Assembly: GCA_964409645.1 (NCBI GenBank)
Contig: CAYPEK010000004.1
Coordinates: 6,135-70,134 of the forward strand
Source of the DNA: an uncultured bacterium
Lineage (GTDB): Bacteria > UBP15 > UBA6099
DNA length: 64,000 bases
Direction of reading: 5' to 3'
Below are positions 4,252 through 62,698 of this stretch, in pieces. Below the pieces are notes generated by a model, which had not been told where the DNA came from, searched no databases, and saw only the letters and a program-made list of their open reading frames with translations. Made by a program: the position numbers and the translations under genes. How positions within the stretch are numbered: the first letter of the stretch is position 1; each line of letters opens with the position of its first letter.

Positions 4252-5022
4252 ATGATGCTGAAGATATACGCAACGCGGGCGGACGAGCCTGCATGGAACA
4301 TGGCGCTCGACGAGGCGCTGCTGGATGAGGCGGCGGCGGACCGCGCCGCGCCGTTCGTGCGATTCTACACGTGGACACCGCCCGCGATCACGGTCGGCTT
4401 CTCACAGGACCCGTCCGTCGAGACGGACACGGAGGCGTGCCACGCGGCGGGAGTGCCGGTTATAAGGCGCATTACCGGCGGCGGCGCCGTATTCCACGAA
4501 AACGAGTTGACATACAGCATGGTCCTGCCTGCCTCAAGCGCGCCGGGGCCTCTGGAGGCGTCGTACAAGCTGATATGCGGGGCGATCGCGACCGGCCTCA
4601 ATTTTTTGAAAAATGGTTTTGAATTCTCTCCCGTTAATGATATTATCTATCATGGGAAAAAAGTGAGCGGCAGCGCGCAGGTTCGGCGCGGCGGTATGCT
4701 CCTCCAACACGGGACTATCCTTCTCGATCCGGACGCGGAAAGAATGTTCAAGCTGCTGAAGGTGCCGGAAGGAAAATTCAGAAAGCATGGCCACGTGAGC
4801 GCGCGGGAACGCGTGGGCGGCCTGCGGGAGGCGCTGGGAAGAAAAGTTACCGCGGAAGAAACGGAAGAAGCGGTGTTAAAGGGTCTGCGCGGCGCATTCG
4901 GTATCGACAGCAAACCATCGGAGTTCCCGGACGGAGTGATCGAAGCCGCGAAGCGTATCAGGCCGCAATACGAATCGGAAAGCTGGAATATGAGGCGCGA
5001 AAAGCCGGCGCCGAAAATATAA
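4252..5022 (+). CDS. Lipoate-protein ligase / octanoyltransferase family protein (LplA/LipM-like catalytic domain)
   Basis: BPL_LplA_LipB-like sequence: NMALDEALL, RFYTWTPPAITVGFSQ, ITGGGAVFHENELTYS, and a conserved lysine in HGKKVSGSAQ. Confidence 0.7.
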   Translation: MMLKIYATRADEPAWNMALDEALLDEAAADRAAPFVRFYTWTPPAITVGFSQDPSVETDTEACHAAGVPVIRRITGGGAVFHENELTYSMVLPASSAPGPLEASYKLICGAIATGLNFLKNGFEFSPVNDIIYHGKKVSGSAQVRRGGMLLQHGTILLDPDAERMFKLLKVPEGKFRKHGHVSARERVGGLREALGRKVTAEETEEAVLKGLRGAFGIDSKPSEFPDGVIEAAKRIRPQYESESWNMRREKPAPKI

Positions 5023-5052
5023 TCCCCCGTATCAAGGAGGTTTCACCTACTG

Positions 5053-5559
5053 ATGAAATTCAAAGCCGAATACGTTTTCAACGGCCCGATCGACATGGTG
5101 TGGGAAGCGAGAGAAAAAAGGTTCCACACTCCCGACCTGTTCCCCGAACTCCAGAAACATCAGGAGATCGAGCGCCGCGAGGAGGGAAAGAAGATTTTCT
5201 CGAAACGGCTCATCGAAATTTCGTCGAGCATCCCGAAGCCGCTCCAGAAAATTCTTTCCCCGGACATGCTGAACTGCACCGACGAATCGGTGTTCGACAT
5301 GGAAACCAACGTGCATACGTGGAACGTTGTGCCGAACCTCAAAACGAAAGTGTTCAAGTGCGTCGGTTACTCGAAATACACGGAGTTCGACGACGGCGGC
5401 GAGAAGAAAACACGCCGCGAGCTCGAACTGACCGTCACCGTCGATATCCCGCTGCTCGGCAAGATGGCCGAACAGGTAATCCTCGACGGCTACAAGAAGA
5501 ATCTCGAAAAAGACAACCAGACGCTCACAAAGATGATCGAAGTTTTGAAAAAAGGATGA
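5053..5559 (+). CDS. Hypothetical protein, possibly SRPBCC/Bet v1-like fold
   Basis: Clean 168-aa ORF in a gap between annotated genes. I did not recognise a family. Confidence 0.4.
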   Translation: MKFKAEYVFNGPIDMVWEAREKRFHTPDLFPELQKHQEIERREEGKKIFSKRLIEISSSIPKPLQKILSPDMLNCTDESVFDMETNVHTWNVVPNLKTKVFKCVGYSKYTEFDDGGEKKTRRELELTVTVDIPLLGKMAEQVILDGYKKNLEKDNQTLTKMIEVLKKG

Positions 5560-5594
5560 ACGCGGCCGCAGTGTCATCCAAGGGGACTGATTAA

Positions 5595-6173
5595 GTGAAC
5601 GTTTATTCAGCAATACAACGGCGGCGCACGATCCGGCGGTTCAAAGAAACGCCCATCTCGGAGGCGTCGCTTATAAAACTCGTCGATGTCGCCCGGCTTG
5701 CGCCCTCCGCGGGCAACCAGCAGCCGCTCGAATACGTCACGGTCAATTCGAAGGAAAAATGCAGCGCCGTGTTCCCGCTCCTCAAGTGGGCGCGGTTCAT
5801 CAAACCCGACGACACGCCGCCCGAGGGCAAGCGGCCCGGCGCATATATAATCGTTCTGATAAACAGAAGCATCGCGTCGAAAGGCGGTTCGCACGACGCG
5901 GGCGCGGCGGTGCAGAACATCATGCTCGCCGCGCTCGAGGACGATATCGGCTCGTGCTGGCTGCGAACGATCGACCGCTCGGCAATAAAGGAGCTGTTCG
6001 GCATCCCGGACCACGTCGAAGTGGACAGCGTGATCGCGCTCGGCAAGTCCGCCGAATCACCGATGACCGAAACCGCACGCAGCGAAAACATCGAATACTG
6101 GCGCGACGAACGCGGTCTGATGCACGTGCCGAAACGCAAAATCGACAACGTTCTTCACAAGGAAAAATACTGA
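5595..6173 (+). CDS. Nitroreductase family protein
   Basis: Opens with the family hallmark IQRRRTIRRFKETPISEASLIKLVDVARLAPSAGNQQPLEYVTV, followed by GSCWL. Confidence 0.85.
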   Translation: MNVYSAIQRRRTIRRFKETPISEASLIKLVDVARLAPSAGNQQPLEYVTVNSKEKCSAVFPLLKWARFIKPDDTPPEGKRPGAYIIVLINRSIASKGGSHDAGAAVQNIMLAALEDDIGSCWLRTIDRSAIKELFGIPDHVEVDSVIALGKSAESPMTETARSENIEYWRDERGLMHVPKRKIDNVLHKEKY

Positions 6174-6187
6174 CGCGGGACGCAACA

Positions 6188-8185
6188 ATGCCCGACGAAA
6201 ACAAACCGCGCCCGGACTACCCCACCCTTACGACTGTGCATATCGCGACGCCGCAGATCACCTCCGGCGGCGATTTCGTTTACAGGCTCAGACAGCCTGA
6301 CACCGCTCTCGGCCGCATCCCCGGCGTCGCCACCGCGAGCATCACAAACATCTTCTCCCGCAGACGCGCGCTGTGCCTCAATGCCGACATCCTCGTCATA
6401 CAACTCCTCGGCGACCCTGATATGCTCCCGATTATGCTCGCGCGCCGCGCCGCAGGCAGACCGACGATCTTCGAAATCTCGGACAACTTCATGAACTTTC
6501 AGCTTTCGAATCCGGCCGCCGCATATCACGACGTCCCCGAAAACCGCGCATGCATCCTTCAGCTAATCGCGGAGGCGGACGCCGTTCAGACGACAGTTCC
6601 GCAGCTCAAAGAACTCTATTCGAAATACAACCCTCACATTGAGGTGTTTGAAAACCAGATCGAAACACCCGGCAGCACCGAGAAGCCCGACGGGCCTGTC
6701 GTCGTAGGTTGGGGCGGAAGTGTCGGCCACTTCGAGGACATCCGCGCCGCGGCGCCCGAAATTGTCCGCTGGCTCAACAGCCGCGCGGACGTTGTTTTCT
6801 CGCTTATGGCGGACCCGAAATTCAAGTCGTTTTTCAGCAACGCTCCGAAGAACAGGTTCCGATTCACACCTCCCGGCTCGCTTCAGGATTACTACTCGTT
6901 TGTCGGCGGTCTCCATATCGGGATCGCGCCGCTCAGGGACGACCCTTTCAACCTCTGCCGCTCAGACGTCAAATTCATCGAGTACGCATCCCACGGAGTA
7001 GTGCCGGTCTGCTCGGACGTGCCGACGTACAATCGCACGCTTCGCGACGGCGTAACGGGTTTTCTTTTCAGCAATACGGAGCAGATGATAGGAATTCTGG
7101 ACCGGCTCGCGACGGACATCACGCTGCGAAAAAAAATCGCGTCGCAGGCTTATGAATACATTAAAAACGAACGCTCGGAGCAGGCGGCGGCGGAACAACG
7201 ACTCGTATTTTACAAATCGCTGCTTCCGCATAATTACGCGCCCGGCAGTCTCGACGAGAAAAAACTGGAATCCATGCCGGGACTGAAACGCTTCGGCGAT
7301 TCCGCTCATTTCATCCACGAACTCACATTTGCCGAACAGCACATCTATAACGCACTCGTCTATCTGTACAACCAAGGAAATCCGGAAGAGGCGGAGAGGT
7401 CCGCGCGTGCGGCGGTATCCGCGGAACCGGACCATTTCTACGTGAATTATGTTCTCGGTGAATCACTGCTGAAAACCAACCCACACGCGGCGGAGAAATG
7501 CTTCCGAAAAGCTGCGGGGCTGTTTCCCGAATCCTGCGCGTCACGCCTCGCGGCGGCAAGACTGTCGGCGGCGGCAGGCAAATACCCGGAAGCGCGCGCG
7601 GCTCTGCAAAAGATTCAAAAAGATTGCCCGGCTTTCGCGCAGGCTTTCGCTCTCGAAGCGGAAATATCAATTGCGGAAAATGACGCGGCCGGCGCGGAGG
7701 CTCTGCTGCGGCGCGCGCTCGAAGCCAACCGGTTCTACTCTCCCGCATCGCTTCGCCTCGGCGCGATGAAACTCGAATCCGGCGACGCCGAAGAGGCGGA
7801 AATATTCTTCCGCGATGCGGCGGAGACGCTGCCGCGCTCGGCTGATGCACGTTGCGGTATGGCAATCGCGCTCGATACGCTCGGCCGGGAGAACGAAGCA
7901 GCGGAATTGCTCCTCGAAGCTTTGCCGCTCGCGACGGACCCGGCGCCGGTGGCCGGCTCGATCCTTAAGATCGCGCTCGATCGTTACAAATCCGGAAAAT
8001 TCGAGGACGCACTTTCACTGCTCGACCGTCTGCTCGACGGCGTGCCCGATCTGCTCGAAGCTATTTTCTGGGCGGCGCGCATCGCCGAGCGATCGGGCGG
8101 AAAGAAAGCCGCCCTCCCATATCTCAAGCGCCTCGCGGCGGCGGACACAGCGGGGAAATACAAACGTTCTTATCAGGATATGTGA
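6188..8185 (+). CDS. Glycosyltransferase (GT1-like Rossmann C-terminal fold) fused to a C-terminal TPR-repeat domain
   Basis: The track ORF 5759-8185 overlaps the nitroreductase gene. The in-frame ATG at 6188 (MPDENKPRPDY) is the plausible start. The GT-like core is GWGGSVGHFEDI...HIGIAPLRDDPFNLCRSDVKFIEYASHGVVPVCSDVPTYNRTLRDGVTGFLF. The C-terminal ~300 aa is Ala/Leu-rich with TPR-like periodicity. Confidence 0.6.
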   Translation: MPDENKPRPDYPTLTTVHIATPQITSGGDFVYRLRQPDTALGRIPGVATASITNIFSRRRALCLNADILVIQLLGDPDMLPIMLARRAAGRPTIFEISDNFMNFQLSNPAAAYHDVPENRACILQLIAEADAVQTTVPQLKELYSKYNPHIEVFENQIETPGSTEKPDGPVVVGWGGSVGHFEDIRAAAPEIVRWLNSRADVVFSLMADPKFKSFFSNAPKNRFRFTPPGSLQDYYSFVGGLHIGIAPLRDDPFNLCRSDVKFIEYASHGVVPVCSDVPTYNRTLRDGVTGFLFSNTEQMIGILDRLATDITLRKKIASQAYEYIKNERSEQAAAEQRLVFYKSLLPHNYAPGSLDEKKLESMPGLKRFGDSAHFIHELTFAEQHIYNALVYLYNQGNPEEAERSARAAVSAEPDHFYVNYVLGESLLKTNPHAAEKCFRKAAGLFPESCASRLAAARLSAAAGKYPEARAALQKIQKDCPAFAQAFALEAEISIAENDAAGAEALLRRALEANRFYSPASLRLGAMKLESGDAEEAEIFFRDAAETLPRSADARCGMAIALDTLGRENEAAELLLEALPLATDPAPVAGSILKIALDRYKSGKFEDALSLLDRLLDGVPDLLEAIFWAARIAERSGGKKAALPYLKRLAAADTAGKYKRSYQDM

Positions 8186-8236
8186 ATAGATTGACGCGGG
8201 GACGCGCAGCAACGCGCCCCCGCAAGGGTACTATCA

Positions 8237-11089
8237 TCAGAACACAAGATTGTTCCTGTGGTTGGCCTGCTTGAGAATTTCGTCGAAGCTCTCGTCCGGC
8301 GTATTCTCTTTAGCTTCCTTCAGTTTCTTTTCCAGCTTCTTCGAGGGCGGATCACCGGGAATGTATTTGTAAACTTCCTCCAATTTCGCAAGCGACTCGT
8401 CCCACTTCCTCTGGAAATAGAATATGACGGCCTCTTCGTGCAGGCGCAGGCCTTTTTCCAGATCGTCCGGGATGCCGACTTCTTTCTTCTCTATAAGCTC
8501 GTAGATTTTCACCGGCTTTTCATAACCGGCGACCCATATTATGTCGAGCAGACGGGTGATAACGAACTCGTCGCACTCGACTTTCGTGAATTCCGATATC
8601 AACTTCTGCGTGTCGTAGTTTTTGCCGCCGCTTTCGAGGTGTTCCCCGAGTTCGACGGCGGGCCCCATCGCGGTGTAGTTGAACCGCCTGATGGACCCCA
8701 TGTTGCCGCAGATCATATCGCCCGTGTTGACTCCGCAGCGAACCTGAATGTCCGGCTTGCCGCGCTCGGCCCAGCCCACCCTCAATTCGGCGAGTTTCTC
8801 CTGCATTTCTATTGCCGTATAGCAACAGTTTTTTGCGTGTTCGGGGAACGGTATCGGCGCGCCGAAGATGCCCACTATGGCGTCGCCGATGTACTTGTCG
8901 AGTGTGCCGCCGTATTTCATAAGGATGTTCGTCATCGCGGTGAGATATTCGTTGAGAAGTTCGACGAGTTCCTCCGGCGTCATCGATTCCGATATCGTTG
9001 TAAAACCGGCGATATCGGAGAAGAAAACCGTTGCGTGCATCCGTTCGCCGCCGAGCTGCAGCTTGTCCGGGTTTGCGACGAGCGTATCGACGACCTGCGG
9101 GTTTACGTACGTCGAGAACATGCCCTTCATTTTCTTCTTTTCCTGCTCTTCTGTGATGTACCTGAAGAGGAATACGAGGAGGAATGTTCCGACAACGAGA
9201 ATGATCGGCGCGAGCAGCGGCAGATTGTATCTGAACTTGATGAACATGTAGTTGCAGAACACTGCGTAAAGCGCGGCGAAAAAGAACATGAGTGTGGCGT
9301 TGATGAGCGCGACAATAATGGAGGATTTGTGCTTGACCGCGCCGCCCGCTGAACCGAGACCGACCGCGAGCACGAAGAAGATCAGCACCACGAACCATTG
9401 GTTAACGCTGAGAATAAACTGGTTGGTGACGATAGTATTGATTACGTTCGCGTGTAGGCCGAGCACCTTGTAACGCGGTTCGAGCGGTGTCGGGTTAGTG
9501 TCCGCCGCGCCTGTTGCCGTAAGGCCCACAATCAGGATTCTGCCCTTCATATCCTCGACCATTTTTTCCGCCGCGACTGCATCGGATTCCCTGAATGCGG
9601 ATAGATTTTCACTCTCTTCCGGTGTAAGTTCCTGTCCCGATTCCTGCTTCTTTTTAATGGAGTACCACGTCAGGGAGTTGTATAAATTCCTGAAACTCAT
9701 GTGGCGAAAAAGCGACGTGTCCGCCCACATGCCCGTCCAGTTAATGAGCATCATCCCGTTAATGAGAGGAACTTCAACATCTCTTTTCGTCTTCGTCTTC
9801 GGATCGCGCGCATTCTTGAGGACAATTTTGTTCTTGCTGAAAACCACATCCTTCGGCTTCACGCCGAGATACTTCATTGCGACGAGAAGGTCTATATGCG
9901 GATACAGCCTTCCGTCGTACTCCACTACCGGCGCGATCAGCCTCATGGTGCCGTCGCCCTGCGTGAACTCGGCTTTCCTGATACCCTGACCCGCCACCTG
10001 CTCGCCGATCTCAGGCCACACGGGTTTGACTTTCCGCAACTCGACATATACGCCCTTCAATTTCTTGGGAACCGGGAAGGACCACTTGTCGTTTTGCTTG
10101 TGGAACTCGGCGAGTTCGGCAGCCTTTTCCTCTTTATCCTTCTTAATCATTTCAATGACGGACGCTTTGAAAGGTTCGCCCTTCTTTTTGTCCATCAGGT
10201 AGTCGAAATCCTTGATCAGCGCGTTTTCGTAAGCGTCGAAAACCGCGCCCTCGATGGGGTCCTCCGGCCGGTTCTTCGTGGGATAAGTAATGATGCGTTC
10301 GAAAATTTTTCTTATCCTTTTACTCTCTTTCAGATCCCTGATATCGTATGGCGAATCGAGACGATTCTTCGCGTCGTAAGTGAAATAGACGTTTTTCGCG
10401 GTTGTAGCGGCAGTTGCGATCACTTTCTCGCGATTGGGCGCGAGACCGCCTCGCGAACTTTCATTCTCTGCAAATGCGGCCACCTGCTGCATATAGTTCG
10501 AGAACGTCGTCATATTGGGATCGAAAAGAATTTCATCGAGTTTCGCGGCTATCGCCGGAGCGTTGGTCGCGGCATCCTGCTCTCCGAGCAATTCTCCGTA
10601 AAAACCGGCGTTCTGGAGCAACTGCGTCTGAAGCTGGGCGTCCTGAGTCAGGATAGAGCTGACCTGCTGTATCTTTCCGCTCAGGTCCTGAACCGCGATC
10701 GGAATATCGCTGAAGCTCATAGCCGTGTTAAGTTTCCGGCCGTAAGGCCAGTAATAGTTGATAGCAAACACAGTGGCGAGGGCATCGGCGTAATCTTTTC
10801 CAAGCCCTTCGATCAGATTCTGATAATAAACCGGATCATCCGGGAACGTGTTTTCCCATTCGAGGGTCGTCTCCTCGATCTCGACGATGATGACATCCTT
10901 GTTGGTCGGCGCTTTCGAGATCGCCTGCCGCAGCTTGAACTTCATGTCGAGGTCGGTGTTGAACAAATTCTTCAGCGGCCCCGACAGATAGAGAATTGCG
11001 AACAGGAGCGCAACCGCCAGTCCTATGAACGGCGATACAATGCGGCTCCTCTCTTCTGCCTTTGTCGGGAGTTTGAACGGTAACTTCAT
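8237..11089 (-). CDS. Membrane receptor class III adenylate cyclase (N-terminal TM, long CHASE2-like periplasmic domain, TM bundle, cyclase homology domain, C-terminal TPR-like tail). It keeps both metal-binding Asp but lacks the transition-state Asn/Arg (C1-like half).
   Basis: Cyclase homology domain motifs: VFFSDIAGFT (metal Asp1), LDKYIGDAIVGIFGAP (Lys + metal Asp2), RCGVNTGDMICGNMG. The distal motif reads YTAMGPAVELGEHLES instead of Y(D/T)xxGDxVNxAxR. A degenerate CHASE2-like signature VIIVEIEETTLEWENTFPDDP follows TM1. Confidence 0.85.
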   Translation of the reverse strand: MKLPFKLPTKAEERSRIVSPFIGLAVALLFAILYLSGPLKNLFNTDLDMKFKLRQAISKAPTNKDVIIVEIEETTLEWENTFPDDPVYYQNLIEGLGKDYADALATVFAINYYWPYGRKLNTAMSFSDIPIAVQDLSGKIQQVSSILTQDAQLQTQLLQNAGFYGELLGEQDAATNAPAIAAKLDEILFDPNMTTFSNYMQQVAAFAENESSRGGLAPNREKVIATAATTAKNVYFTYDAKNRLDSPYDIRDLKESKRIRKIFERIITYPTKNRPEDPIEGAVFDAYENALIKDFDYLMDKKKGEPFKASVIEMIKKDKEEKAAELAEFHKQNDKWSFPVPKKLKGVYVELRKVKPVWPEIGEQVAGQGIRKAEFTQGDGTMRLIAPVVEYDGRLYPHIDLLVAMKYLGVKPKDVVFSKNKIVLKNARDPKTKTKRDVEVPLINGMMLINWTGMWADTSLFRHMSFRNLYNSLTWYSIKKKQESGQELTPEESENLSAFRESDAVAAEKMVEDMKGRILIVGLTATGAADTNPTPLEPRYKVLGLHANVINTIVTNQFILSVNQWFVVLIFFVLAVGLGSAGGAVKHKSSIIVALINATLMFFFAALYAVFCNYMFIKFRYNLPLLAPIILVVGTFLLVFLFRYITEEQEKKKMKGMFSTYVNPQVVDTLVANPDKLQLGGERMHATVFFSDIAGFTTISESMTPEELVELLNEYLTAMTNILMKYGGTLDKYIGDAIVGIFGAPIPFPEHAKNCCYTAIEMQEKLAELRVGWAERGKPDIQVRCGVNTGDMICGNMGSIRRFNYTAMGPAVELGEHLESGGKNYDTQKLISEFTKVECDEFVITRLLDIIWVAGYEKPVKIYELIEKKEVGIPDDLEKGLRLHEEAVIFYFQRKWDESLAKLEEVYKYIPGDPPSKKLEKKLKEAKENTPDESFDEILKQANHRNNLVF

Positions 11090-11129: not shown

Positions 11130-13982
11130 TTATTTCGTCGTCATCGTGTAAACGCCGTCCCAATTTTCGCCGGGCGGGTTGATCTTGTACTCCTCGCACC
11201 TGCCTAGGAAGATTCTGCTCGGACCGTCGTTCGGTTCGGCTTCGAGCGCCAGCTTGAACTGAGCGATCGCGTCGTCCCACTTCTGCGCGAGGTAGAGTTG
11301 CGTTCCGGTTACAAAATGCTTGCGGCAGGCTTCGAGGGTGGCCGTAAGTCCCTCGTCCGTGCGGCCCATCAGCTCGAACACTTCGACCGGTTCGTCGCGG
11401 CCCTTCACCCGTATCTTGTCTATCGAGCGGGCGATTATCTTGTCCTTCGCTTTCGCATACGTGAATTCGCTTATCATCAGGCTGGTCTTGTATTGCTTGT
11501 TGGCGCCGAGAATACGGGACGCGAGGTTTACGGCGTCGCCCATGATCGTGTAGTTGAACCGCGTCTCGGAGCCCATGTTCCCGGCGATCATCATGCCGGA
11601 GTTGATGCCCACACTCGTGTGGATCGGCTTCTTTCCCTCGGCTTCCCATTTCTTGTAAAGTTCGAGAGTGGCCTTGCGCATCTCGAGCGCGGCGTAACAG
11701 TTCTTGACGGCGTTGTCCTCGTAGTAAATCGGTGCGCCGAAAACGGCCATTATTATGCTTCCCTCGTATTTGTCTAACATTCCGCTGTTATCGAAGATCG
11801 GATCGGTCATCGCTGTGAAGTATTCGTTGAGGCGGTCAACAAGTTCCTCCGGCGTCTCGGCGTCCTCGAGGCCCGGTCCGGACGCGAGCGCGAACATCGC
11901 CGACAGGTCCATCTTCTCGCCGCCGAGCTGCAACTTCTCCGGGTTTTGTATCAGCGTATCGACGACCTCCGGGTTCACGTACGTCGAGAACATCGCCTTC
12001 ATCCGTTTCGCTTCCTGTCCCTCCGTCATGAACCTGTATATAACTACGAATAGATACGTGAAAACAAGCGAAAGGATGATCGGAAACACGATGATCCAGA
12101 GCCGTGCATACGCAAAAAGAAGATACGCGATTATCGTGTAGGCCAGTATTATTCCGAACGTGACCGCAGCGCCCTTTGCCTGTTTGTACATGCCGCCGGA
12201 GTAACCCGCGACAACCGAAAGAGCAATAATCGTAAGGAAGAAAAACCAGAACGGCGTAGTGCGGATAAACAACTGATTTACGATGGTGTTCACAAGGTTG
12301 CCGTGCATTCCGACGAGCGGGTAGCGCGGGTGGAACGGCATCGGGTTCAGGTCGTGCGTATCGGAAGCGGTTACGCCGGTGAGCGTGATTTTATTGTTGA
12401 AGAATTTCATTCGTTTCTTAACAGCGTCTATTTCCTTGTCCGAAAGGCCCCCCACCTGTTTCTGTTCCGCCTGCGTGAGCGTTTCCCCGCGGTCGAACTT
12501 ATTCATAATGTTGTATATCACGGCATCGTCGTGAACGCGCCTGAAACTGCGGTGGACGAATGTGTTCGGCTGCATGTATGTGCCGGACCAGTTCACAAGC
12601 ACCGTCCCGTCGTCGAGAAGCGGTATCGTCACATCGAATTTTTTCTTATCTCCCGGTTTTGTGCAGTTCTTCAGGACAATTTTGTTCTCGTAGAAAACAA
12701 CGTCTTTCTTTTTAACGTCGAGATATCTCATCGCCAGCATCAGGTCGATATGAGGATAGAGCCTACCCTCGAACACGACCACCGGCGCCGCCGCGCGTAT
12801 GATTTCCGTGTACCATTTCAGTTCCGGCATGACGTATCCGTCGCCCGCCGAGAATTCGCCCACGGATTTGATCGGCGACTCCATCGTCACTATGTTGACG
12901 TATTTCTTGAACAGCTTTTCCTTGGAAACTGGAGCATCCTTTCCTATATCGAATCCGAACGGGTAATTTGCCTCTATGATGTTCTGATTGTATGCGTGCA
13001 ACTTATCCCGTTCGTTTTTTATTGCTTCCCTTTCGACATCTGTAAACGGGAGAGCTTTTCTTCCGCCTTTCTCTTTCGCCTGCTCTAAAAGCCTGTCGTA
13101 ATCCTCGACCTTCATGTTGCGGAGAGCGTAGTTGACGGCGACTTCTTCCTTGTTTTTCGTCTTCGCCCTGTCCGCCATGACAATCAGCTTCTGGAAAATT
13201 CCGTGGTAATGCGGATCGTACATTATCTGGCCGATCGTCACTGTCGTCCGTTCCGGCTTCGTCACAGTCTGCGCGAGATACACATTGCCAGCGTACTGGA
13301 TCGCGTCGTGGAGTATCTTGTCCCTGTCGGGCGCGATTCCGGACGGATCTGAACTTTCGAACAAAGATATTCCTTGTGAATTGAATTGATCGATCTGCGT
13401 CTGCATCGTTTTGTTGCCGGCGACTCCGAGCAGCTTGTTCTTCGCCGAATCGAGCGTCGGCAGTGTCGGCGGCAGCCTCAGTTCCTCACCCGCCTCGTAA
13501 AGTCCGTTCTTCACTTCGTCTATCGTCGCCTGATTTTCCTGAATCTGAGACGGCAGCTTATCGAACGTGCCCGCTATTTCATTGTTTAGGATCGGCCCCG
13601 AAGGATCGAAGAAGAATATATCGAAGAATGTCCCCTTTGCTTTTGAGCCCGGCGTGCCGAGGCCGCGGATAATTTCCGCGTACAGCCTGCGGTCGAACGG
13701 CCACGGCTTCCATTCCCAGCTCTCGTCGTCGATGTCGAGCAGAACGAGATTCTGCGAGATGTTCTTCTGCGGCATCGCTCCCCTGATCCGGAAGCGCACG
13801 TCGTACGTCCAGTATTCCATCTTGTTGTAGAAGTCGTTGACAATCGAAAGCGTGCTGTTGGCCTTCATCGTCTTGGTGTTGAACATAAGCCCGAAAATCA
13901 CGGCCACCACTAAGCCTATCAACACGCCCATGATCGGGTTTCGTTTCTCAGGGCTTTTCGGGAGTCCCAGCGAAAATTTCAT
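11130..13982 (-). CDS. Paralogous membrane CHASE2 class III cyclase, also 950 aa. Both metal-binding Asp are substituted, but Lys/Thr/Asn/Arg are retained (C2-like half).
   Basis: CHASE2 signature NLVLLDIDDESWEWKPWPFDRRLYAEII...FFDIFFFDP. Cyclase domain has AMFALASGPG in place of FFSDIAGFT and LDKYEGSIIMAVFGAP with Ser in place of the second Asp. It keeps VGINSGMMIAGNMG and YTIMGDAVNLASRIL. Confidence 0.85.
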   Translation of the reverse strand: MKFSLGLPKSPEKRNPIMGVLIGLVVAVIFGLMFNTKTMKANSTLSIVNDFYNKMEYWTYDVRFRIRGAMPQKNISQNLVLLDIDDESWEWKPWPFDRRLYAEIIRGLGTPGSKAKGTFFDIFFFDPSGPILNNEIAGTFDKLPSQIQENQATIDEVKNGLYEAGEELRLPPTLPTLDSAKNKLLGVAGNKTMQTQIDQFNSQGISLFESSDPSGIAPDRDKILHDAIQYAGNVYLAQTVTKPERTTVTIGQIMYDPHYHGIFQKLIVMADRAKTKNKEEVAVNYALRNMKVEDYDRLLEQAKEKGGRKALPFTDVEREAIKNERDKLHAYNQNIIEANYPFGFDIGKDAPVSKEKLFKKYVNIVTMESPIKSVGEFSAGDGYVMPELKWYTEIIRAAAPVVVFEGRLYPHIDLMLAMRYLDVKKKDVVFYENKIVLKNCTKPGDKKKFDVTIPLLDDGTVLVNWSGTYMQPNTFVHRSFRRVHDDAVIYNIMNKFDRGETLTQAEQKQVGGLSDKEIDAVKKRMKFFNNKITLTGVTASDTHDLNPMPFHPRYPLVGMHGNLVNTIVNQLFIRTTPFWFFFLTIIALSVVAGYSGGMYKQAKGAAVTFGIILAYTIIAYLLFAYARLWIIVFPIILSLVFTYLFVVIYRFMTEGQEAKRMKAMFSTYVNPEVVDTLIQNPEKLQLGGEKMDLSAMFALASGPGLEDAETPEELVDRLNEYFTAMTDPIFDNSGMLDKYEGSIIMAVFGAPIYYEDNAVKNCYAALEMRKATLELYKKWEAEGKKPIHTSVGINSGMMIAGNMGSETRFNYTIMGDAVNLASRILGANKQYKTSLMISEFTYAKAKDKIIARSIDKIRVKGRDEPVEVFELMGRTDEGLTATLEACRKHFVTGTQLYLAQKWDDAIAQFKLALEAEPNDGPSRIFLGRCEEYKINPPGENWDGVYTMTTK

Positions 13983-30944: not shown

Positions 30945-32105
30945 ATGCAAACGATCAAACCCCACGGCGGCGCCCTCATCAACCGTATGGCCGAAGGCGA
31001 CCTGCTCAAAGACCTGACCTCCCGCGCCCCCGGGATGGTCAAAATAAACATCAATAATAAGGAACTTTCCGACCTGCTGATGATCGCCATCGGCGGATTC
31101 AGCCCGTTGACCGGCTTCATGCGGAAAGCCGACTACGACAGCGTCGTCGATACGAAACACCTCTCGAACGGGCTGCCGTGGACGATCCCGATCACGCTTT
31201 CCTGCGACGATGCAACCGCGTCGAAACTGAAACCCGGCGACGACGCGGCACTGTACGACGGCGACGGCGTCCTTCGCGGCGTGCTGCACATCGACGAGAA
31301 ATACACTTACGACAAAAAGAGAGAAGCGACGAAAGTCTATAGAACCGACGACGGAGCACACCCCGGCGTCGCATTTGTTTACGCGCAGGGCGACACCCTC
31401 CTCGGCGGCGACGTGTGGATGGTCGAGCGGCCGCAGCCACCCGAGTTCCCGCAGTACTGGCGCGACCCGGCGGAGACGCGCCGCATCTTCGAGGAGCGCA
31501 ACTGGAAACGCGTCGTCGCGTTCCAGACGCGGAACCCCGTGCACCGCGCGCACGAGTATATCCAGAAAGTCGCGATGGAAATCTGCGACGGGCTCCTGCT
31601 CCACCCGCTCGTCGGCGAAACGAAAAAGGGCGACATCCCGGCGGACGTCCGCATGAAATGCTACGAAGTGCTGCTTGACAACTACTACCCGAAAGACCGC
31701 ACGCTGTTGAGCGTGCTGCCCGCCGCGATGCGCTACGCAGGCCCGGCGGAAGCCATATTCCACGCCATCATGCGCAAGAACTACGGCTGCACCCACTTCA
31801 TCGTCGGCCGCGACCACGCCGGTGTCGGCAACTACTACGGCTCGTTCGACGCGCATTACATCTTCGATGAATTCGACCCTGCCGCGATCGGCATCACGCC
31901 GCTCTTCTTCGACTACACGTTCTTCTGCTCGAAGTGCGGCGGCATGGCATCGAACAAAACATGCCCGCACGACGCGTCGCACCACATCTCGCTCTCCGGC
32001 ACCAAAGTGCGCGAGATGCTGGCGAACGGCGAAATCCCGCCTGTCGAGTTCACGCGCCCCGAAGTCGCCGAAGTGCTCATCGAATCGATGAAAAACAACG
32101 GCTGA
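30945..32105 (+). CDS. sat: Sulfate adenylyltransferase (ATP sulfurylase)
   Basis: [23 protein letters not shown], and PUA-like N-terminal domain [14 protein letters not shown]. Confidence 0.9.
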
Positions 32106-32167
32106 CAGGCCTACAACGATTTGTTGTTTTAAAATCAGAAATTCTAATCATGGAATATTACAGCTAT

Positions 32168-32192
32168 ATCCGTGTCTATCTGTGGTTCTTGC
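32168..32192. repeat. 25-bp direct repeat copy 1, ATCCGTGTCTATCTGTGGTTCTTGC
   Basis: It is an exact duplicate of 33208-33232. The two copies bracket an AT-rich 1015-bp segment. The repeat contains the heptads ATCCGTG and ATCTGTG spaced 10 bp apart. Confidence 0.9.
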
Positions 32193-32216
32193 AATGATAT
32201 AATATAACTATACAAT
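32189..32216 (+). promoter_or_regulatory. Putative sigma70-type promoter for the island gene: TTGCAA, 16-bp spacer, TACAAT
   Basis: The -35 element overlaps the end of repeat copy 1. The -10 element lies 22 nt upstream of ATG 32239. Confidence 0.35.
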
Positions 32217-32238
32217 TTCATATTGTGAGATTAGTAAA

Positions 32239-33168
32239 ATGACTGATGAAGAATTGATTAAAGAGATAAAAAGATTATTCGGGTCCAAGAGAATAACGCT
32301 CTTAAAAGCACTTCATGAATGTGCAGATAAAATACCCGTACAAGCAATGATTGAGCAAGAATTACAAAAAACAACGGGGCTGCATGTAAAATCATGTGTT
32401 GCGCTATCTGATGATACCCTGAAATGGATGTCTCAAAAGTCCAGTGACATTAAGAAGCTGAATTTCGATCCCGAAGACCGTTCCGAACTAATAGGAGATC
32501 CGAGTTTCTGGTTCCTTTTACTATTGAATAAGAATATAAAAGACCCTCTCGATTTCGATGAGAAGTTGGCGGAACGACACAACACTTTATTCTTTTGTGA
32601 AATCTGGGCAAGTATTCTTTTTCCTCTGTACACCTACGACATCTATTATTGGAAATATTCGAAAAAAGATAATATTCAGGAATTTGGCCCTTATAAGCCC
32701 CAAAAAAAGCACGAAGCAATTGCCGTTAATGACATGAAGAAGGCAATGAAAACATTCGGTTATAAATTAATATCGAAGAAAACAGCAAAAACAATAATCA
32801 GACAAGCTATAACGGATTGCGCGGAAAAAGGCGAGGCTACAGTTTTCGATTGTATCTTCAGCGATATGACATTTTATACGGAAACAAAATCACGGATGAA
32901 CATAGAAAGGAATGTTTATCCTGAGCTTGGAATGGAATGCAACTGGAGAGAATATTACGACAAAAAACATAAACTATATGAAAAAAAGATTTACATGCAA
33001 TTTTATGAAAGAGATGACGAGACCATCGTTATTGATTCTGAAGGCAGAATTAAAAAATTTGAGATAGGCTCAGGAAGTCACGCAAACATACCTTCCCAAT
33101 GGATCACTTACGATACCGATAAAAAGACCGGTTATCTTACCAGAAAAAAAGAAAAACACAAGGGATAA
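32239..33168 (+). CDS. Orphan hypothetical protein (309 aa, Lys-rich) on an AT-rich island
   Basis: The ORF is complete but its AT-rich composition clashes with the flanking genes. No family was recognised. Confidence 0.6.
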   Translation: MTDEELIKEIKRLFGSKRITLLKALHECADKIPVQAMIEQELQKTTGLHVKSCVALSDDTLKWMSQKSSDIKKLNFDPEDRSELIGDPSFWFLLLLNKNIKDPLDFDEKLAERHNTLFFCEIWASILFPLYTYDIYYWKYSKKDNIQEFGPYKPQKKHEAIAVNDMKKAMKTFGYKLISKKTAKTIIRQAITDCAEKGEATVFDCIFSDMTFYTETKSRMNIERNVYPELGMECNWREYYDKKHKLYEKKIYMQFYERDDETIVIDSEGRIKKFEIGSGSHANIPSQWITYDTDKKTGYLTRKKEKHKG

Positions 33169-33207
33169 ATCTGGATATAGTTTTCCCGAAATAGTAAGTG
33201 CTATTGA

Positions 33208-33232
33208 ATCCGTGTCTATCTGTGGTTCTTGC
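33208..33232. repeat. 25-bp direct repeat copy 2 (identical to 32168-32192)
   Basis: Exact match. It ends 8 nt from the glmM stop codon (33241-33243). Confidence 0.9.
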
Positions 33233-33240
33233 TTTGCTGG

Positions 33241-34614
33241 TCAGTTGACTTTGAGTTCTTTTTTGACTGTATTGAGGATTTCGTCGGTGCTGGCTTCGGC
33301 GATTTCTCGATCCCACGTTTCAACCATGACGCGTATCAGCGGTTCCGTGCCGGAGGGCCGCACGACAACGCGGCCGTTTTCGCCGAGGCGCTTTTCTATC
33401 TCCGCAACCTTTTTCTGTATCTTCGCGTTTTCGTAAAACGCTTCCCTGTTCGGGACTCTTATGTTCTTTAGAAACTGCGCCGAGCGCTTCATCTTCGTGA
33501 GTTCGGAGAACGGCTTTTTCAGCGCGGCGAAGTATTTCACCGTCTGAGCGGCGGTGATGAGCCCGTCGCCGGTTGTTGACAGGTCGAGAAAGATTATATG
33601 GCCGGACTGCTCGCCGCCGAGGTTGTAGCCGCCTGCGACCATCTCACGCATGACAAACTTGTCGCCTACCGCGGCGCGTATCATTTTACCACCGAGCTTC
33701 TTCAGCCCGAGCTCGAACCCCATGTTCGTCATCACCGTTGTGACAACCGTTTTCTTAGGCAGCCGGTTTTCCTTTATCATCTGTCCGGCGCAGAGAAGCA
33801 TTATCTGGTCGCCATCGACTATATTGCCTTTTTCGTCTATAAAAATCACGCGGTCGGCGTCGCCGTCGAAGGCGAATCCGAGCGCCGCGCCGTGCTTGAG
33901 CACCTTCTTCGCGAGTTTGTCCGGCCGCGTCGATCCGCAGTCAACGTTGATCTTCCTGCCGTCTTCATCCGCGTTGACGAACATGACGTCTTCCGCGACT
34001 TCTCTGAAGACACGCTTAGCGTATCTGGACGCCGCGCCGTTCGCGCAATCGATTATGATCCGGCCGTCGATGAACACGCCGCGCAGCAGCCGCCGTACGT
34101 ACGCGATGTAATTTGTCGCCATGTTGCCTTTGTCGAGCGAGGAGCCGACTTTGTCGCCGGACGGCAACTCAAGCGCATACGGCCCCTGCGCGATCAGCTT
34201 CTCGATCGCCCGCTCGTCTTCGTCTTCGAGCTTGCCGCCCTCGCCTGAGAAAACCTTAATGCCGTTGTCCTCGACCGGGTTGTGTGAGGCGGAGATCATG
34301 ATCCCGCAGTCGCAGCCGAGATTCGCCGTCAGGTACGCGAGTCCGGGCGTCGGGACGATGCCTATGCAAAGCGCGTCGCACCCGGCGGACGTGATACCCG
34401 CTACGAGCGCTGTTTCTATCATGTCGCCGGACACCCGCGTGTCCTTGCCGACAAGCACCCGTCCCGGCGTACCCTTCTTCACCGTGCACAGATGATGCGC
34501 GGCGCAGCGTCCGACCGCCAGAGCTATCTCCGCCGTGAGTTCCACATTCGCCACGCCACGTATGCCGTCGGTGCCGAACCGCACCGTATTTTTATTCTTT
34601 CCGTAAGTCGCCAT
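33241..34614 (-). CDS. glmM: Phosphoglucosamine mutase
   Basis: MATYGKNKNTVRFGTDGIRGVAN, active-site SASHNPVEDNGIKVF, GIVPTPG. Confidence 0.9.
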   Translation of the reverse strand: MATYGKNKNTVRFGTDGIRGVANVELTAEIALAVGRCAAHHLCTVKKGTPGRVLVGKDTRVSGDMIETALVAGITSAGCDALCIGIVPTPGLAYLTANLGCDCGIMISASHNPVEDNGIKVFSGEGGKLEDEDERAIEKLIAQGPYALELPSGDKVGSSLDKGNMATNYIAYVRRLLRGVFIDGRIIIDCANGAASRYAKRVFREVAEDVMFVNADEDGRKINVDCGSTRPDKLAKKVLKHGAALGFAFDGDADRVIFIDEKGNIVDGDQIMLLCAGQMIKENRLPKKTVVTTVMTNMGFELGLKKLGGKMIRAAVGDKFVMREMVAGGYNLGGEQSGHIIFLDLSTTGDGLITAAQTVKYFAALKKPFSELTKMKRSAQFLKNIRVPNREAFYENAKIQKKVAEIEKRLGENGRVVVRPSGTEPLIRVMVETWDREIAEASTDEILNTVKKELKVN

Positions 34615-60166: not shown

Positions 60167-60235
60167 CATATAACATAGTATTTATTATTATCATTGATTG
60201 TATTTTACCAACAAATTAATTGAGGAGTGAACGCC

Positions 60236-62698
60236 ATGTCGATACTTAATAGTCTGTCCGGCCTTTCAACAAACAGTCTTCTGATTTCGAATAAAAACTC
60301 GGCGGCTTCAAGCAAAAAAAACGGACTTTTCAGCAAATCAGCGGCCGCCAAGACAAATGCAAGCTACAAAGCAACCATTTCATCCAACGTGGATTCACTT
60401 AGCACGCTCATCGGTCAGGTGGACAGCGAACTCTCCGTTTTCACTGCGACAAGCTCCCTGACGAAAAACATCAACTTCAGCTCAGCATTCAAAAGCGCGT
60501 TTTCCAACTCGGCGTTCAACCAATCCTCATTTTCTCTAACGCCTCAAACCGCCTCACAGAAGATCACAAGTCTCGCAAAGAATATCGTCGATACCGCATC
60601 GAGCACCAACAACCTCCCGTCGTCTCAGAAAATCAAACTACTGCTCGCTGTCATGAACCTGATCGACAAAGCCTTCACAAGCACGAAAGATATCTACAAT
60701 TCGATGAACCTTTATTCCGGCTATAACGCACAAAGCCTCCAGCAGACGCAATCACTCACCTCTCAAAATCTGACCAGCTACCTGAACTCTCTAACAACAT
60801 CCACCTCGTCCGGCACGGCTACCGGAACGACTACGGGCGCCACAACCGGAACAGCCGGTACAACAACAGGAACAACTCCCACGCAGCCCCCCAATACACA
60901 AACAACAACACAATCAACACCCTCCTCGATCCTCAGCGATCCGAATGCTCAGAAAGCACTCGAAACGCTCAAAAACAGCGATTATTTCTATTTTGGGTCG
61001 GGAACAATGGCCTTACAATATCCAATAGATGGGATAATTGACAATATTCATTTTAGTAACCAATTACAAACCGATATAAATGGTATCCAGCATGTTATTT
61101 CCGTATCGCTTGAAACCAATACAGTAATGCTCGATTACGGGACACAAACATTCGGTAATTTTTTCGGTAATTTAACTGAAGCAAGTAAATATATTGATAC
61201 CGCACAGCAAGCAACTATTTTAGATTCATCCGGTCAAACACATACAATACAGGGCGTATTTGCAAATGGAACAGTGACCGACACTGTTGTTGACGGTGTT
61301 ACAATGAACTCGCAGGAACTCGTGAATTGGGCTTCGAGTGCAGGTTTGGCGGCCAATACCTATACAATCTCTTCCGGCCAACAAATAACCGAGTACCACG
61401 CAACAACTCAGTCGCCTTATGGAAGTTCTGATGCAATTATCGCAGCGACTGTGGACGGACAGGCGCTTAACCGCCAAGAGTATCTTATAGACCACAGAAG
61501 ATATAGTAACGCTCCTAATTGGCCCGCCGTTTCCGGTTATGTTGAAACTCCTTCCGGTAATTATGTTTATTTAGACGAAAATATGGTTGCCGGCCAAGCA
61601 ACGATTAACGGAACTTCGGTAACCGATCAGCAGCTTGTCAACTGGGCAAAACAGGAAGGCCTTGAGACAAAATCTTATGACATCGCCGGGAATCAAGTTA
61701 ACGAATATTATGCCAGTTTTGTCACATCATTAGGTACAAAGAAAATCCGAATCGCAGCAGAAGTGAACGGAATCGTTTGCAACAGCCTAAATTGGGTCAA
61801 CTCTTCTGGATCGCAATTATTTTTTTCTGAAAACACCGCAACTATCGAAGATGCTTCGGGCAATTACATTACAACCGGCCTCTGGAAAACATGGTACGAC
61901 GTACAGACGGCCCAAGTAGAAGAAAGCTTGTTTTCAATTAATGGAATGGTCCTTACTAATGAGCAGGATAATATCGACTGGGCTAAAAATAACAATCTTT
62001 ACAACAGAACCCTTACTGTAAACGGCAAAAATGTAACAGAATATTACATCTATGACACAAGTCAAACTGACAAAAACATATTAAATTTATTTGCGGTTGA
62101 AGTTGATGGAACTGCTTATTCTATCAGTGATTATGTAAATTCGGCATACAAAGCGCCGGATTTGACCTTAACAGCCAGCCCGATTGTGCTTGATCTCACG
62201 GGGAATGGAATCGAATCGGTCAGTGCGGAACAGGGAGTTCAGTTCGACCTCCTCGGGACGGGCCAAAAGGTGCAGACCGGCTGGGTGAGCCCGGGCGCGG
62301 CCTTCCTCGCCCTCGACAAGGACAACAGCGGCTCGATCGAGAGCGGCAAGGAGCTGTTCGGCAACCAGAGCGGCGCCGCCAACGGCTACGAGGAACTCGC
62401 AAAATACGACGAGAATAACGACGGCGTCATAAACGCCTCCGACTCCATCTACAACAAGCTCCTTCTGTGGCAGGATACCAACATGAACGGCGTGAGCGAC
62501 ACCGGCGAACTAAGCAGCCTCGCCGACACCGGCGTCTCATCCATCAACGTCAACTACAATACCGTCTCCGAAACGGTGACGGGCGGCAACCAGATACGCC
62601 AACGCTCGTTCTTCACTTTTGAAAACGGCACAACGGGCAACACCGCCGATATCTGGTTCCGCTACAACGCGTTTTCGGCATATGTCAACGTCGCCTGA
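60236..62698 (+). CDS. Ser/Thr/Asn-rich 820-aa mosaic protein: no signal peptide, Thr-rich linker, three ~55-aa internal repeats, C-terminal module with three DxDxDG-type Ca2+-binding loops
   Basis: SD GAGGAG 11 nt before ATG 60236. Coding DNA 60236-62200 is AT-rich, and the last ~500 bp are native high-GC. Repeats VTDQQLVNWAKQEGLETKSYDIAGNQVNEYY, MNSQELVNWASSAGLAANTYTISSGQQITEYH and LTNEQDNIDWAKNNNLYNRTLTVNGKNVTEYY. Ca2+-loop motifs DKDNSGSIE, DENNDGVINASD and DTNMNGVSDTGE. Confidence 0.65.
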   Translation: MSILNSLSGLSTNSLLISNKNSAASSKKNGLFSKSAAAKTNASYKATISSNVDSLSTLIGQVDSELSVFTATSSLTKNINFSSAFKSAFSNSAFNQSSFSLTPQTASQKITSLAKNIVDTASSTNNLPSSQKIKLLLAVMNLIDKAFTSTKDIYNSMNLYSGYNAQSLQQTQSLTSQNLTSYLNSLTTSTSSGTATGTTTGATTGTAGTTTGTTPTQPPNTQTTTQSTPSSILSDPNAQKALETLKNSDYFYFGSGTMALQYPIDGIIDNIHFSNQLQTDINGIQHVISVSLETNTVMLDYGTQTFGNFFGNLTEASKYIDTAQQATILDSSGQTHTIQGVFANGTVTDTVVDGVTMNSQELVNWASSAGLAANTYTISSGQQITEYHATTQSPYGSSDAIIAATVDGQALNRQEYLIDHRRYSNAPNWPAVSGYVETPSGNYVYLDENMVAGQATINGTSVTDQQLVNWAKQEGLETKSYDIAGNQVNEYYASFVTSLGTKKIRIAAEVNGIVCNSLNWVNSSGSQLFFSENTATIEDASGNYITTGLWKTWYDVQTAQVEESLFSINGMVLTNEQDNIDWAKNNNLYNRTLTVNGKNVTEYYIYDTSQTDKNILNLFAVEVDGTAYSISDYVNSAYKAPDLTLTASPIVLDLTGNGIESVSAEQGVQFDLLGTGQKVQTGWVSPGAAFLALDKDNSGSIESGKELFGNQSGAANGYEELAKYDENNDGVINASDSIYNKLLLWQDTNMNGVSDTGELSSLADTGVSSINVNYNTVSETVTGGNQIRQRSFFTFENGTTGNTADIWFRYNAFSAYVNVA

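Follow-up and report, generated by a model that had tools for sequence, protein, structure and literature searches.

A low-GC one-gene islet bracketed by 25-bp direct repeats between sat and glmM encodes a member of an unannotated protein family

Results

A single-gene segment between two identical repeats

The DNA analysed here is a stretch of 64,000 nucleotides (nt) from an uncultured bacterium (GTDB lineage Bacteria; UBP15; UBA6099), positions 6,135 to 70,134 of contig CAYPEK010000004.1 in assembly GCA_964409645.1, and is referred to below as the window. The intergenic space between its convergent genes sat and glmM holds an island, a segment with one gene for a protein of 309 amino acids (aa) that is bracketed by two direct copies of the 25-mer ATCCGTGTCTATCTGTGGTTCTTGC, spaced 1040 nt apart (repeat family D2; Table 1). 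Both copies are exact and lie where the original prediction, a reading of the letters of the window alone, had placed them; between the second one and the stop codon of glmM (33241-33243) there are 8 nt, again as it had said. A search of both strands of the window with up to three mismatches returned just these two matches and none in 100 shuffles, and no further copy was found in any locus fetched for the comparisons below or in IMG/VR. When 300 intervals of gene size were drawn at random from the window, none had a flanking repeat longer than 12 nt, the sole exception being an interval that fell on the island itself.

Table 1. Features of the sat-glmM region, with positions in the window (L001, L004 and L006 are contigs described in the text; GC, guanine plus cytosine; GC3, GC at third codon positions)
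Feature	Position	Strand	Remarks
sat, sulfate adenylyltransferase, left neighbour	30945..32105	+	Convergent with glmM; GC 61%, GC3 83%; the identical protein of L006 has PUA_2 and ATP-sulfurylase domains
Left arm, presumed chromosomal intergenic	32106..32167		~31% GC (counted by hand); not similar to L004; presumably of the chromosome rather than the element
Left 25-bp repeat copy, attL-like core	32168..32192		GCTAT at 32163-32167 may extend the repeat
Promoter-like TTGCAA-16-TACAAT	32189..32216	+	9/12 matches; -35 straddles the inner edge of the repeat
Inserted segment proper	32193..33207	+	1015 bp; 1040 bp including one repeat copy
Single gene, 309 aa	32239..33168	+	Sole substantial open reading frame of the segment
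3' non-coding end of the insert	33169..33207		Without intrinsic terminator; the first ~17 nt still align with the 3' end of the coding sequence in L004
Right 25-bp repeat copy, attR-like core	33208..33232		8 nt from the glmM stop codon
glmM, phosphoglucosamine mutase, last of argH-cdaA-cdaR-glmM	33241..34614	-	PGM_PMM I-IV domains on the same gene in L001; GC 58%

The segment between the repeats has a GC content of 35.2%, against a mean of 57.0 ± 4.3% and a minimum of 41.8% for the other 1015-bp windows of the stretch (z = -5.05). At third codon positions the island gene reaches 37%, compared with 83% in sat, 75% in glmM, 69% in cdaR, 80% in cdaA and 83% in argH. Because both measures depart so far from the surroundings, the composition is foreign and unameliorated, and the segment is very probably an insertion of foreign DNA, presumably a recent one. 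The AT-richness and foreign character noted by the original prediction are thus borne out; its figure of more than 60% GC for the flanks holds for sat but is slightly too high for glmM.

What was transferred can be delimited by comparison with the closest relative of the island, an islet on another contig (L004) whose protein is 61% identical. DNA similarity between the two begins in the promoter block at ~32197, 5 nt from the inner edge of the left repeat, and ends at ~33185, 22 nt before the right repeat, so that the common unit comprises the gene, ~45 nt upstream and ~20 nt downstream, and does not include the 25-mer. Because similarity stops 5-22 nt from the inner edges of the repeats, the interval that they bound is the transferred unit, as had been proposed, and it is likely that the repeat itself was created by the insertion. 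Outside the 25-mer the two copies share only GCTAT, which abuts the left copy and is spaced from the right one by TGA; apart from this the repeat does not extend. The CTAT that the original prediction saw further out is therefore real, as part of GCTAT, but offset between the two sides.

No integrase or transposase gene lies inside the segment, as already noted from the letters, nor does the region contain an Rfam match. Its ends carry no terminal inverted repeats, the 12/40 in-register identities between them being at chance level. Upstream of the gene, the sigma70-like promoter sequence that had been pointed out is present, but promoter-like sites as a class are not enriched in the region (four found versus 3.4 ± 1.9 expected from shuffles). 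An extended -10 element, TGATATAAT, was recognised by eye at 32195-32203, where it overlaps that site, and a TAATATA..CTA..TAC block of the promoter region is kept in L004. The island gene may carry its own promoter. The left arm contains a small hairpin (32113-32127) with a T-run behind it, possibly the terminator of sat. Between the island gene and the convergent glmM (33169-33243) an intrinsic terminator is absent, and transcription from either gene could run antisense into the other.

The island recurs in independent assemblies

Two MEGAHIT contigs assembled from other samples (L001 and L002) encode the identical island protein, each with both repeat copies and both junctions, and an NCBI metagenome contig (L006) has an identical left junction. 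Across these three contigs and the window the island is 99.7-100% identical. Since the same junctions recur in other samples and assemblers, the island is no assembly artefact. One of the MEGAHIT contigs (L001, positions 1-130, aligned with window 31668-31797) begins with a strongly divergent sat allele that extends to ~31797 of the window; it is unalignable at first, shows 17 differences in 31733-31796 and is near-identical from there on. This switch, ~300 nt upstream of the island, would be either a strain recombination breakpoint or an assembly switch, and the divergent allele means that related strains coexist.

A search for the unoccupied locus combined exact-protein look-ups of the window Sat and GlmM, which returned only the same population, with a GlmM scan of species representatives. 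The sole relative in the species-representative collection, L007, has a GlmM 82% identical to that of the window and with a C-terminus of equal length, the C-terminus of the window GlmM being untouched by the insertion. L007 retains argH-cdaA-cdaR-glmM, and the ~2.3 kb downstream of its glmM (6375-8700) is mostly of lower GC (30-50%), with alpha/beta-hydrolase and SH3-like genes followed by a PHP-like gene. Because different low-GC genes occupy this place in L007, the 3' flank of glmM is a variable spot in this lineage, and by this comparison it looks like a hotspot for foreign DNA. The comparison of the sat-glmM region in related genomes that the original prediction had suggested has thus revealed variability downstream of glmM, but no empty site.

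The island protein belongs to a rare, conserved and unannotated family

The 309-aa protein contains 42 lysines and has an isoelectric point (pI) of 8.5 and a basic tail. No family for it was found in Pfam, NCBIfam, PHROGs (chance-level matches only) or PADLOC (0 families at E≤10), in agreement with its first description as a Lys-rich protein without a recognisable family. A word-indexed search of 5.8 billion proteins recovered only three relatives, of 61%, 41% and 39% identity, and repeating that search with a profile of 85 sequences added almost nothing new. A HMMER profile search of 1.84 billion representatives retrieved 113 clusters at E≤1e-3, 30 of them at E≤1e-30. The protein is therefore a member of a real, rare and conserved family that has gone unannotated: the 85 members compared with Pfam and NCBIfam matched no family, except for a GNAT domain in one fusion protein, and a sub-threshold cryptochrome match among these scans was judged spurious. 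No homologue was found in IMG/VR, among the INPHARED phages or among the PLSDB plasmids.

Full-length members are ~300 aa long and can be aligned end to end. They share the invariant residues L96, P129, F207, D209 and W236 and the nearly invariant D87, N97, D105, D134, E148, E159, D193, G198, D204 and E238. The family signature is (A)TVFDCLFSD, present in the window protein as ATVFDCIFSD, where it closes the central core. Many members of ~200 aa match this core only (profile positions ~85-210) and stop directly after the signature. The AlphaFold2 (AF2) model of the window protein is confident (predicted local distance difference test, pLDDT, 94.2; predicted template modelling score, pTM, 0.90). 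Residues 1-65 form a helical domain at the N-terminus, residues 86-215 the alpha/beta core in the centre and residues 216-303 a beta-meander, after which comes the basic tail. The original prediction had looked to a structure prediction and fold search to place the protein; Foldseek found no match for this model at E<1e-3 in the PDB or BFVD, and a profile search of PDB sequences was empty. Two variations on the domain were seen among the relatives. In P0052 (L035, 6001-7449), on a 148-kb contig and among secreted-protein genes, the core is fused to the GNAT domain (Acetyltransf_3), and in L031 (36-1013) two core domains stand in tandem within one open reading frame (ORF).

Full-length relatives lie at unrelated loci, mostly alone

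The full-length relatives are found at unrelated loci and most of them stand alone, the closest being in low-GC islets of ~1 kb in other genomes (Table 2). Across about ten loci no partner gene recurs. The family is at home in low-GC contigs, some of which show features of toxin or immunity loci. In GC-rich genomes it is found only here and there, as an islet whose composition is unameliorated.

Table 2. Settings of family members outside the window
Locus	Form	Setting
L003 (3.17-Mb contig)	Full-length	Gene 38% GC, flanks 58-59%; large surface-protein gene on one side, 3' end of tRNA-Arg on the other
L004	Full-length	Closest islet; after a DUF4160/DUF2442 pair
L023/L024	Full-length	Between a pilM-like gene and a thiolase gene
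L025/L026	Full-length	Gene 37% GC, flanks 50-60%; between nucleotidyltransferase-like (judged from sequence) and HAD-like genes
L033	Full-length	After an Asp/Arg-hydroxylase gene, beside a HaeII restriction-modification pair
L036	Full-length	Short contig, between two unidentified partial genes
L027	Full-length	1.4 kb downstream of an ORF ending in NPVNYTDPTGH (which we take to be an Rhs-type motif) and a variable tip
L034	Core-only	Among small genes that all lie on one strand, including DUF7336, a fragment of DUF1963 and a weak Imm30 match; CdiI_3 4 kb away
L029	Core-only	Homologue at 4785-5372, behind a 90-aa basic ORF (4445-4717); exact repeats of 17 nt, 1029 nt apart, bound the module

A second case of flanking repeats was found at L005, whose homologue is 41% identical to the window protein and is bracketed by a direct repeat of 65 nt, 82% identical between copies and spaced by 1020 nt. 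This repeat is unrelated in sequence to the 25-mer of the window. It is palindromic (copies at 31-95 and 1051-1115, with a partial third copy at 9-24), and folding of the downstream copy gives a stable hairpin (z = -3.65). Measured against the null of 300 intervals, both the 25 nt of the window and the imperfect 65 nt of L005 are significant, whereas an 11-nt repeat flanking L023/L024 falls within the null distribution. A likeness of the 25-mer to the promoter region of L003 failed a shuffle test, and a weak match in L033 was not significant after correction for multiple testing.

The surroundings of the core-only relative in L029 show a peculiar layout. From 4445 to 6963, pairs of small ORFs are separated by the exact 17-mer GCCCCGAGGGAACTAGT, which encodes (C/G)PEGTS within the small ORFs themselves. 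No Pfam toxin family matches in this run of small ORFs, and by analogy its layout resembles orphan modules of toxin tip and immunity gene. A fragment of an IS110-family transposase gene lies nearby, at 3508-4083. Relatives of the 90-aa basic ORF (P0121-P0127) share a conserved basic module of ~60 aa, TAGEIIGQEKKG...KAKKLLKDKRFDKKDNRK, which occurs on variable N-termini or alone and is unannotated; it could bind nucleic acids or act as a small toxin.

Discussion

How did a solitary gene of foreign composition come to lie at the end of glmM? We tentatively read the island as a foreign single-gene cassette that lacks its own recombinase, entered an att-like site of 25 bp just past glmM and is possibly of an orphan-immunity or defence kind, a reading that as a whole falls a little short of probable. 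According to this model, a one-gene cassette with its own promoter would enter the short space between the convergent sat and glmM as a circle of ~1040 bp carrying one copy of the 25-bp core. This core would recombine with an identical one 8 nt downstream of glmM in a conservative, site-specific (Campbell-type) reaction catalysed by a recombinase encoded elsewhere, leaving the attL-like and attR-like copies on either side. Of the routes considered this one is the most likely, with a presumed circular intermediate and a presumed trans-acting enzyme. An att-type origin of the repeat appears somewhat the better supposition when set against duplication by staggered cuts, and the GCTAT(TGA) extension would fit imperfect homology between att sites slightly better than a fresh duplication.

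With regard to the cargo, we infer that the protein acts alone because no conserved partner gene accompanies it at about ten loci. The genomic context points weakly to an immunity-type role against interbacterial toxins. This guess of a protective role comes from the three loci where a relative lies among toxin-immunity genes (L034), in a repeat-bounded module (L029) or downstream of an Rhs-type end (L027). An immunity-type or defence-type function in this broad sense is the likeliest one for the 309-aa protein, if still rather doubtful. The insertion proposed by the original prediction is largely supported, but its candidate functions, defence, abortive infection or addiction, have gained no direct backing: PADLOC gives no match, there is no partner gene, and nothing similar turns up in phages or plasmids.

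Several observations pull in the other direction from this reading. As for the insertion, no recombinase was identified: a partial scan of the window genes, covering ten large ORFs, found no integrase or transposase among these ordinary chromosomal genes. The 25-mer lacks internal dyad symmetry (best 3/6 matches), which many recombinase sites show, and its flanks form no hairpin (z = 0.18 and 0.01 for folding versus shuffles). No empty site with a single 25-mer was encountered in the look-ups and the scan, every assembly of this population carrying the island, and no circular junction was seen. L007 does not offer a clean empty site either, the flank of its glmM having no sat, no flanking repeat and no similarity to the intergenic DNA of the window, so that the locus is rearranged. 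The 25-mer is not conserved near any homologue. No flanking repeats of at least 9 nt exist at L003, L025/L026, L027, L033 and L035, and the matches of only 9 nt that flank L004, L034 and L036 are at chance level. With just two of about ten full-length loci showing them, long flanking repeats are no hallmark of the family. As for the function, no toxin gene adjoins the island, and the protein matches neither PADLOC nor any Imm family. A basic tail is unusual for immunity proteins, and here it comes together with the additional N- and C-terminal domains of the full-length form. In L027, two ORFs, one of them with an hflX-like N-terminal domain, separate the Rhs-type end from the homologue, and the homologues of the presumed toxin tip of L029 all measure 65-128 aa, with no long toxin among them.

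The most serious rival to the cassette is a decayed remnant, in which an integrase-bearing island once occupied the 25-bp site and lost its interior by deletion until only attL, attR and one cargo gene were left. The arrangement is that of a cis-mobilizable element (CIME), namely direct repeats 3' of a conserved gene with no integrase between them (PMC5704250), and the L003 homologue abuts the 3' end of tRNA-Arg, a classic integrase target. Nevertheless, all that the island has in common with the independent L004 islet is the gene with its ~45 nt upstream and ~20 nt downstream, ending at the repeats, and several members are solitary islets of ~1 kb elsewhere, so that a remnant would call for equally extreme decay time and again; there is no pseudogene debris and GC3 is unameliorated. 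We regard a remnant as unlikely and lean towards a cassette mobilised in trans because other family members also stand alone in ~1-kb islets at unrelated loci. If, on the other hand, a transposase or casposase-like integrase acting in trans had joined a linear 1015-bp DNA to cuts staggered by 25 (or ~30) nt, gap repair would have produced the repeat as a target-site duplication. The identity of the two copies is what a fresh duplication would give, the repeat abuts the homology unit on both sides, and the absence of the 25-mer near other homologues suits a target better than an element sequence. Known transposases and casposases typically duplicate 2-15 bp, and 25 bp is far beyond that range. 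Moreover, the segment has no terminal inverted repeats or recognisable element ends, no second copy exists in the window, other islets of the family lack duplications, and the GCTAT/GCTAT+TGA adjacency suits imperfect att homology somewhat better; this route is accordingly improbable in our view.

Could the protein move itself? A single gene of ~1 kb flanked by a duplication has the layout of a minimal insertion sequence (IS), the family appears at scattered loci, and the helical N-terminal domain, basic tail and conserved acidic core residues (D87, D105, D134, E148, E159, D193, D204, D209, E238) could be imagined in a recombinase or transposase of a new kind that mobilises the gene encoding it. 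We hold this to be very improbable: the protein matches no transposase or recombinase family and, according to Foldseek, has no RNase-H-like, tyrosine-recombinase or serine-recombinase fold, its gene is single-copy without terminal repeats, most islets lack a flanking duplication, and core-only relatives of ~200 aa in arrays of small genes, together with the tandem fusion in L031, are unlike transposases. Equally far-fetched is a repeat that has nothing to do with insertion, being instead an operator or promoter part on both sides of the gene or a later local duplication. The left copy does overlap the -35 of the promoter-like site, and the L005 repeat likewise covers the region just upstream of its gene, with a hairpin in the downstream copy; but the right copy in the window has no -10 element or gene to serve, the sequence is not kept in L004 or any other islet, and the inner edges of the repeats coincide with the edges of the foreign DNA. 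Finally, the window comes from a metagenome, and L001 switches strain inside sat ~300 nt upstream of the island, so one might suspect a chimera in which the gene of a low-GC organism was joined at a common 25-mer. Four assemblies, which stem from at least three samples, agree exactly at the junctions, and contig names of the form k141_... imply k = 141, with which an assembler cannot bridge on an overlap of 25 nt, leaving a chimera hardly credible.

Which known mobile units does the proposed cassette resemble? CIMEs are att-flanked, lack an integrase of their own and derive from integrative and conjugative elements (ICEs) or integrative and mobilizable elements (IMEs) (PMC5704250), and the island shares with them att-like direct repeats around foreign DNA at the 3' side of a housekeeping gene, with no recombinase inside. 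It differs from them in being one intact gene in 1 kb, free of debris and of any known parent element, and in having similar one-gene islets elsewhere; a CIME is as a rule several kb long and consists of decayed ICE or IME sequence. Integron cassettes are similar in their size of ~1 kb, their single gene, the lack of an own recombinase, the presumed small circles and the site-specific insertion. Unlike them, usually promoterless as they are, the island has its own promoter-like site. It was rejected as an integron cassette: 32100-32240 and 33160-33250 contain no RYYYAAC/GTTRRRY cores of attC, the flanks fold no better than shuffles, the neighbours are sat and glmM with no IntI or attI adjacent, the ten large ORFs scanned include no integrase, and with two repeat copies in 64 kb there is no array. 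ISs and pdif modules are likewise small and have a duplicated or repeated site at either end. An ordinary IS was dismissed for want of a transposase family or fold and of terminal inverted repeats, and on account of a duplication far longer than those of ISs, a length that the original prediction had fairly judged excessive for a target-site duplication. The pdif/Xer module was also discarded, as the 25-mer lacks the 11-6-11 dyad of the 28-bp site (best dyad 3/6) and its copies are direct; pdif sites flank their modules in inverted orientation. Lastly, there is no room for a guide of the bridge-RNA type, the non-coding arms of 46 and 39 nt being too short and without an Rfam match.

The comparison can be extended to immunity loci. 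Horizontal acquisition of orphan immunity genes is well established. The recombinase-associated acquired interbacterial defense clusters (rAID-1) of Bacteroidales hold horizontally acquired orphan immunity genes with skewed GC and integron-like intergenic repeats, and are defined by a 5' XerD-like recombinase gene followed by at least two co-oriented low-GC genes with repetitive intergenic sequences (bioRxiv 10.1101/471110). Low GC is the only trait that the island has in common with them, and it was set aside as a cluster of this type: it has one gene, with sat upstream, no adjacent recombinase and a host outside the Bacteroidales. Immunity proteins of polymorphic toxins come to mind in view of the core-only relatives that lie in arrays with a DUF1963 fragment, CdiI_3 and a weak Imm30 match, or in repeat-bounded two-gene modules. 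They differ from the family in that it matches no described Imm family in sequence or fold and has no toxin beside the window gene. A known anti-phage defence system was likewise rejected on the PADLOC and PHROGs results given above.

Should the cassette reading be true, the island would be a very small mobile unit that stands apart from integrons and is made up of a single gene, the promoter of that gene and an att-like site. Its cargo is a conserved and wholly unannotated family with a confidently predicted fold that has no relatives among solved or viral structures. If this family could be tied to toxin immunity or to defence, the repertoire of such proteins would grow by one family, and the solitary occurrence of the gene in unrelated genomes would be explained. 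In its most far-reaching form, the proposal would describe a new kind of promoter-bearing one-gene cassette of ~1 kb, without an own recombinase, that moves between distant and compositionally different genomes, sometimes leaves repeats of 25-65 bp and spreads a protective new fold, whether for orphan immunity or for another single-protein defence; so broad a claim is distinctly unlikely. As it stands, the island is a recombinase-less islet between att-like repeats that carries a new protein family. If the reading is wrong, it is one more orphan gene in a small genomic islet.

Other features of the window

To the right of the island, on the opposite strand, the string that ends in glmM shows the domains Lyase_1 (argH), DAC (cdaA), YbbR (cdaR) and PGM_PMM I-IV (glmM). 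There are no tRNA genes within the window. The second-lowest GC of the window is at 60227-62698 on the plus strand (42-47% in 1-kb windows), where an 823-aa ORF without a Pfam family (GC 47%, GC3 52%) may be another foreign orphan gene. On the minus strand, the adjacent 950-aa genes at 8237-11089 and 11130-13982 both encode a CHASE2 sensor with an adenylate/guanylate cyclase domain and are probably paralogues.

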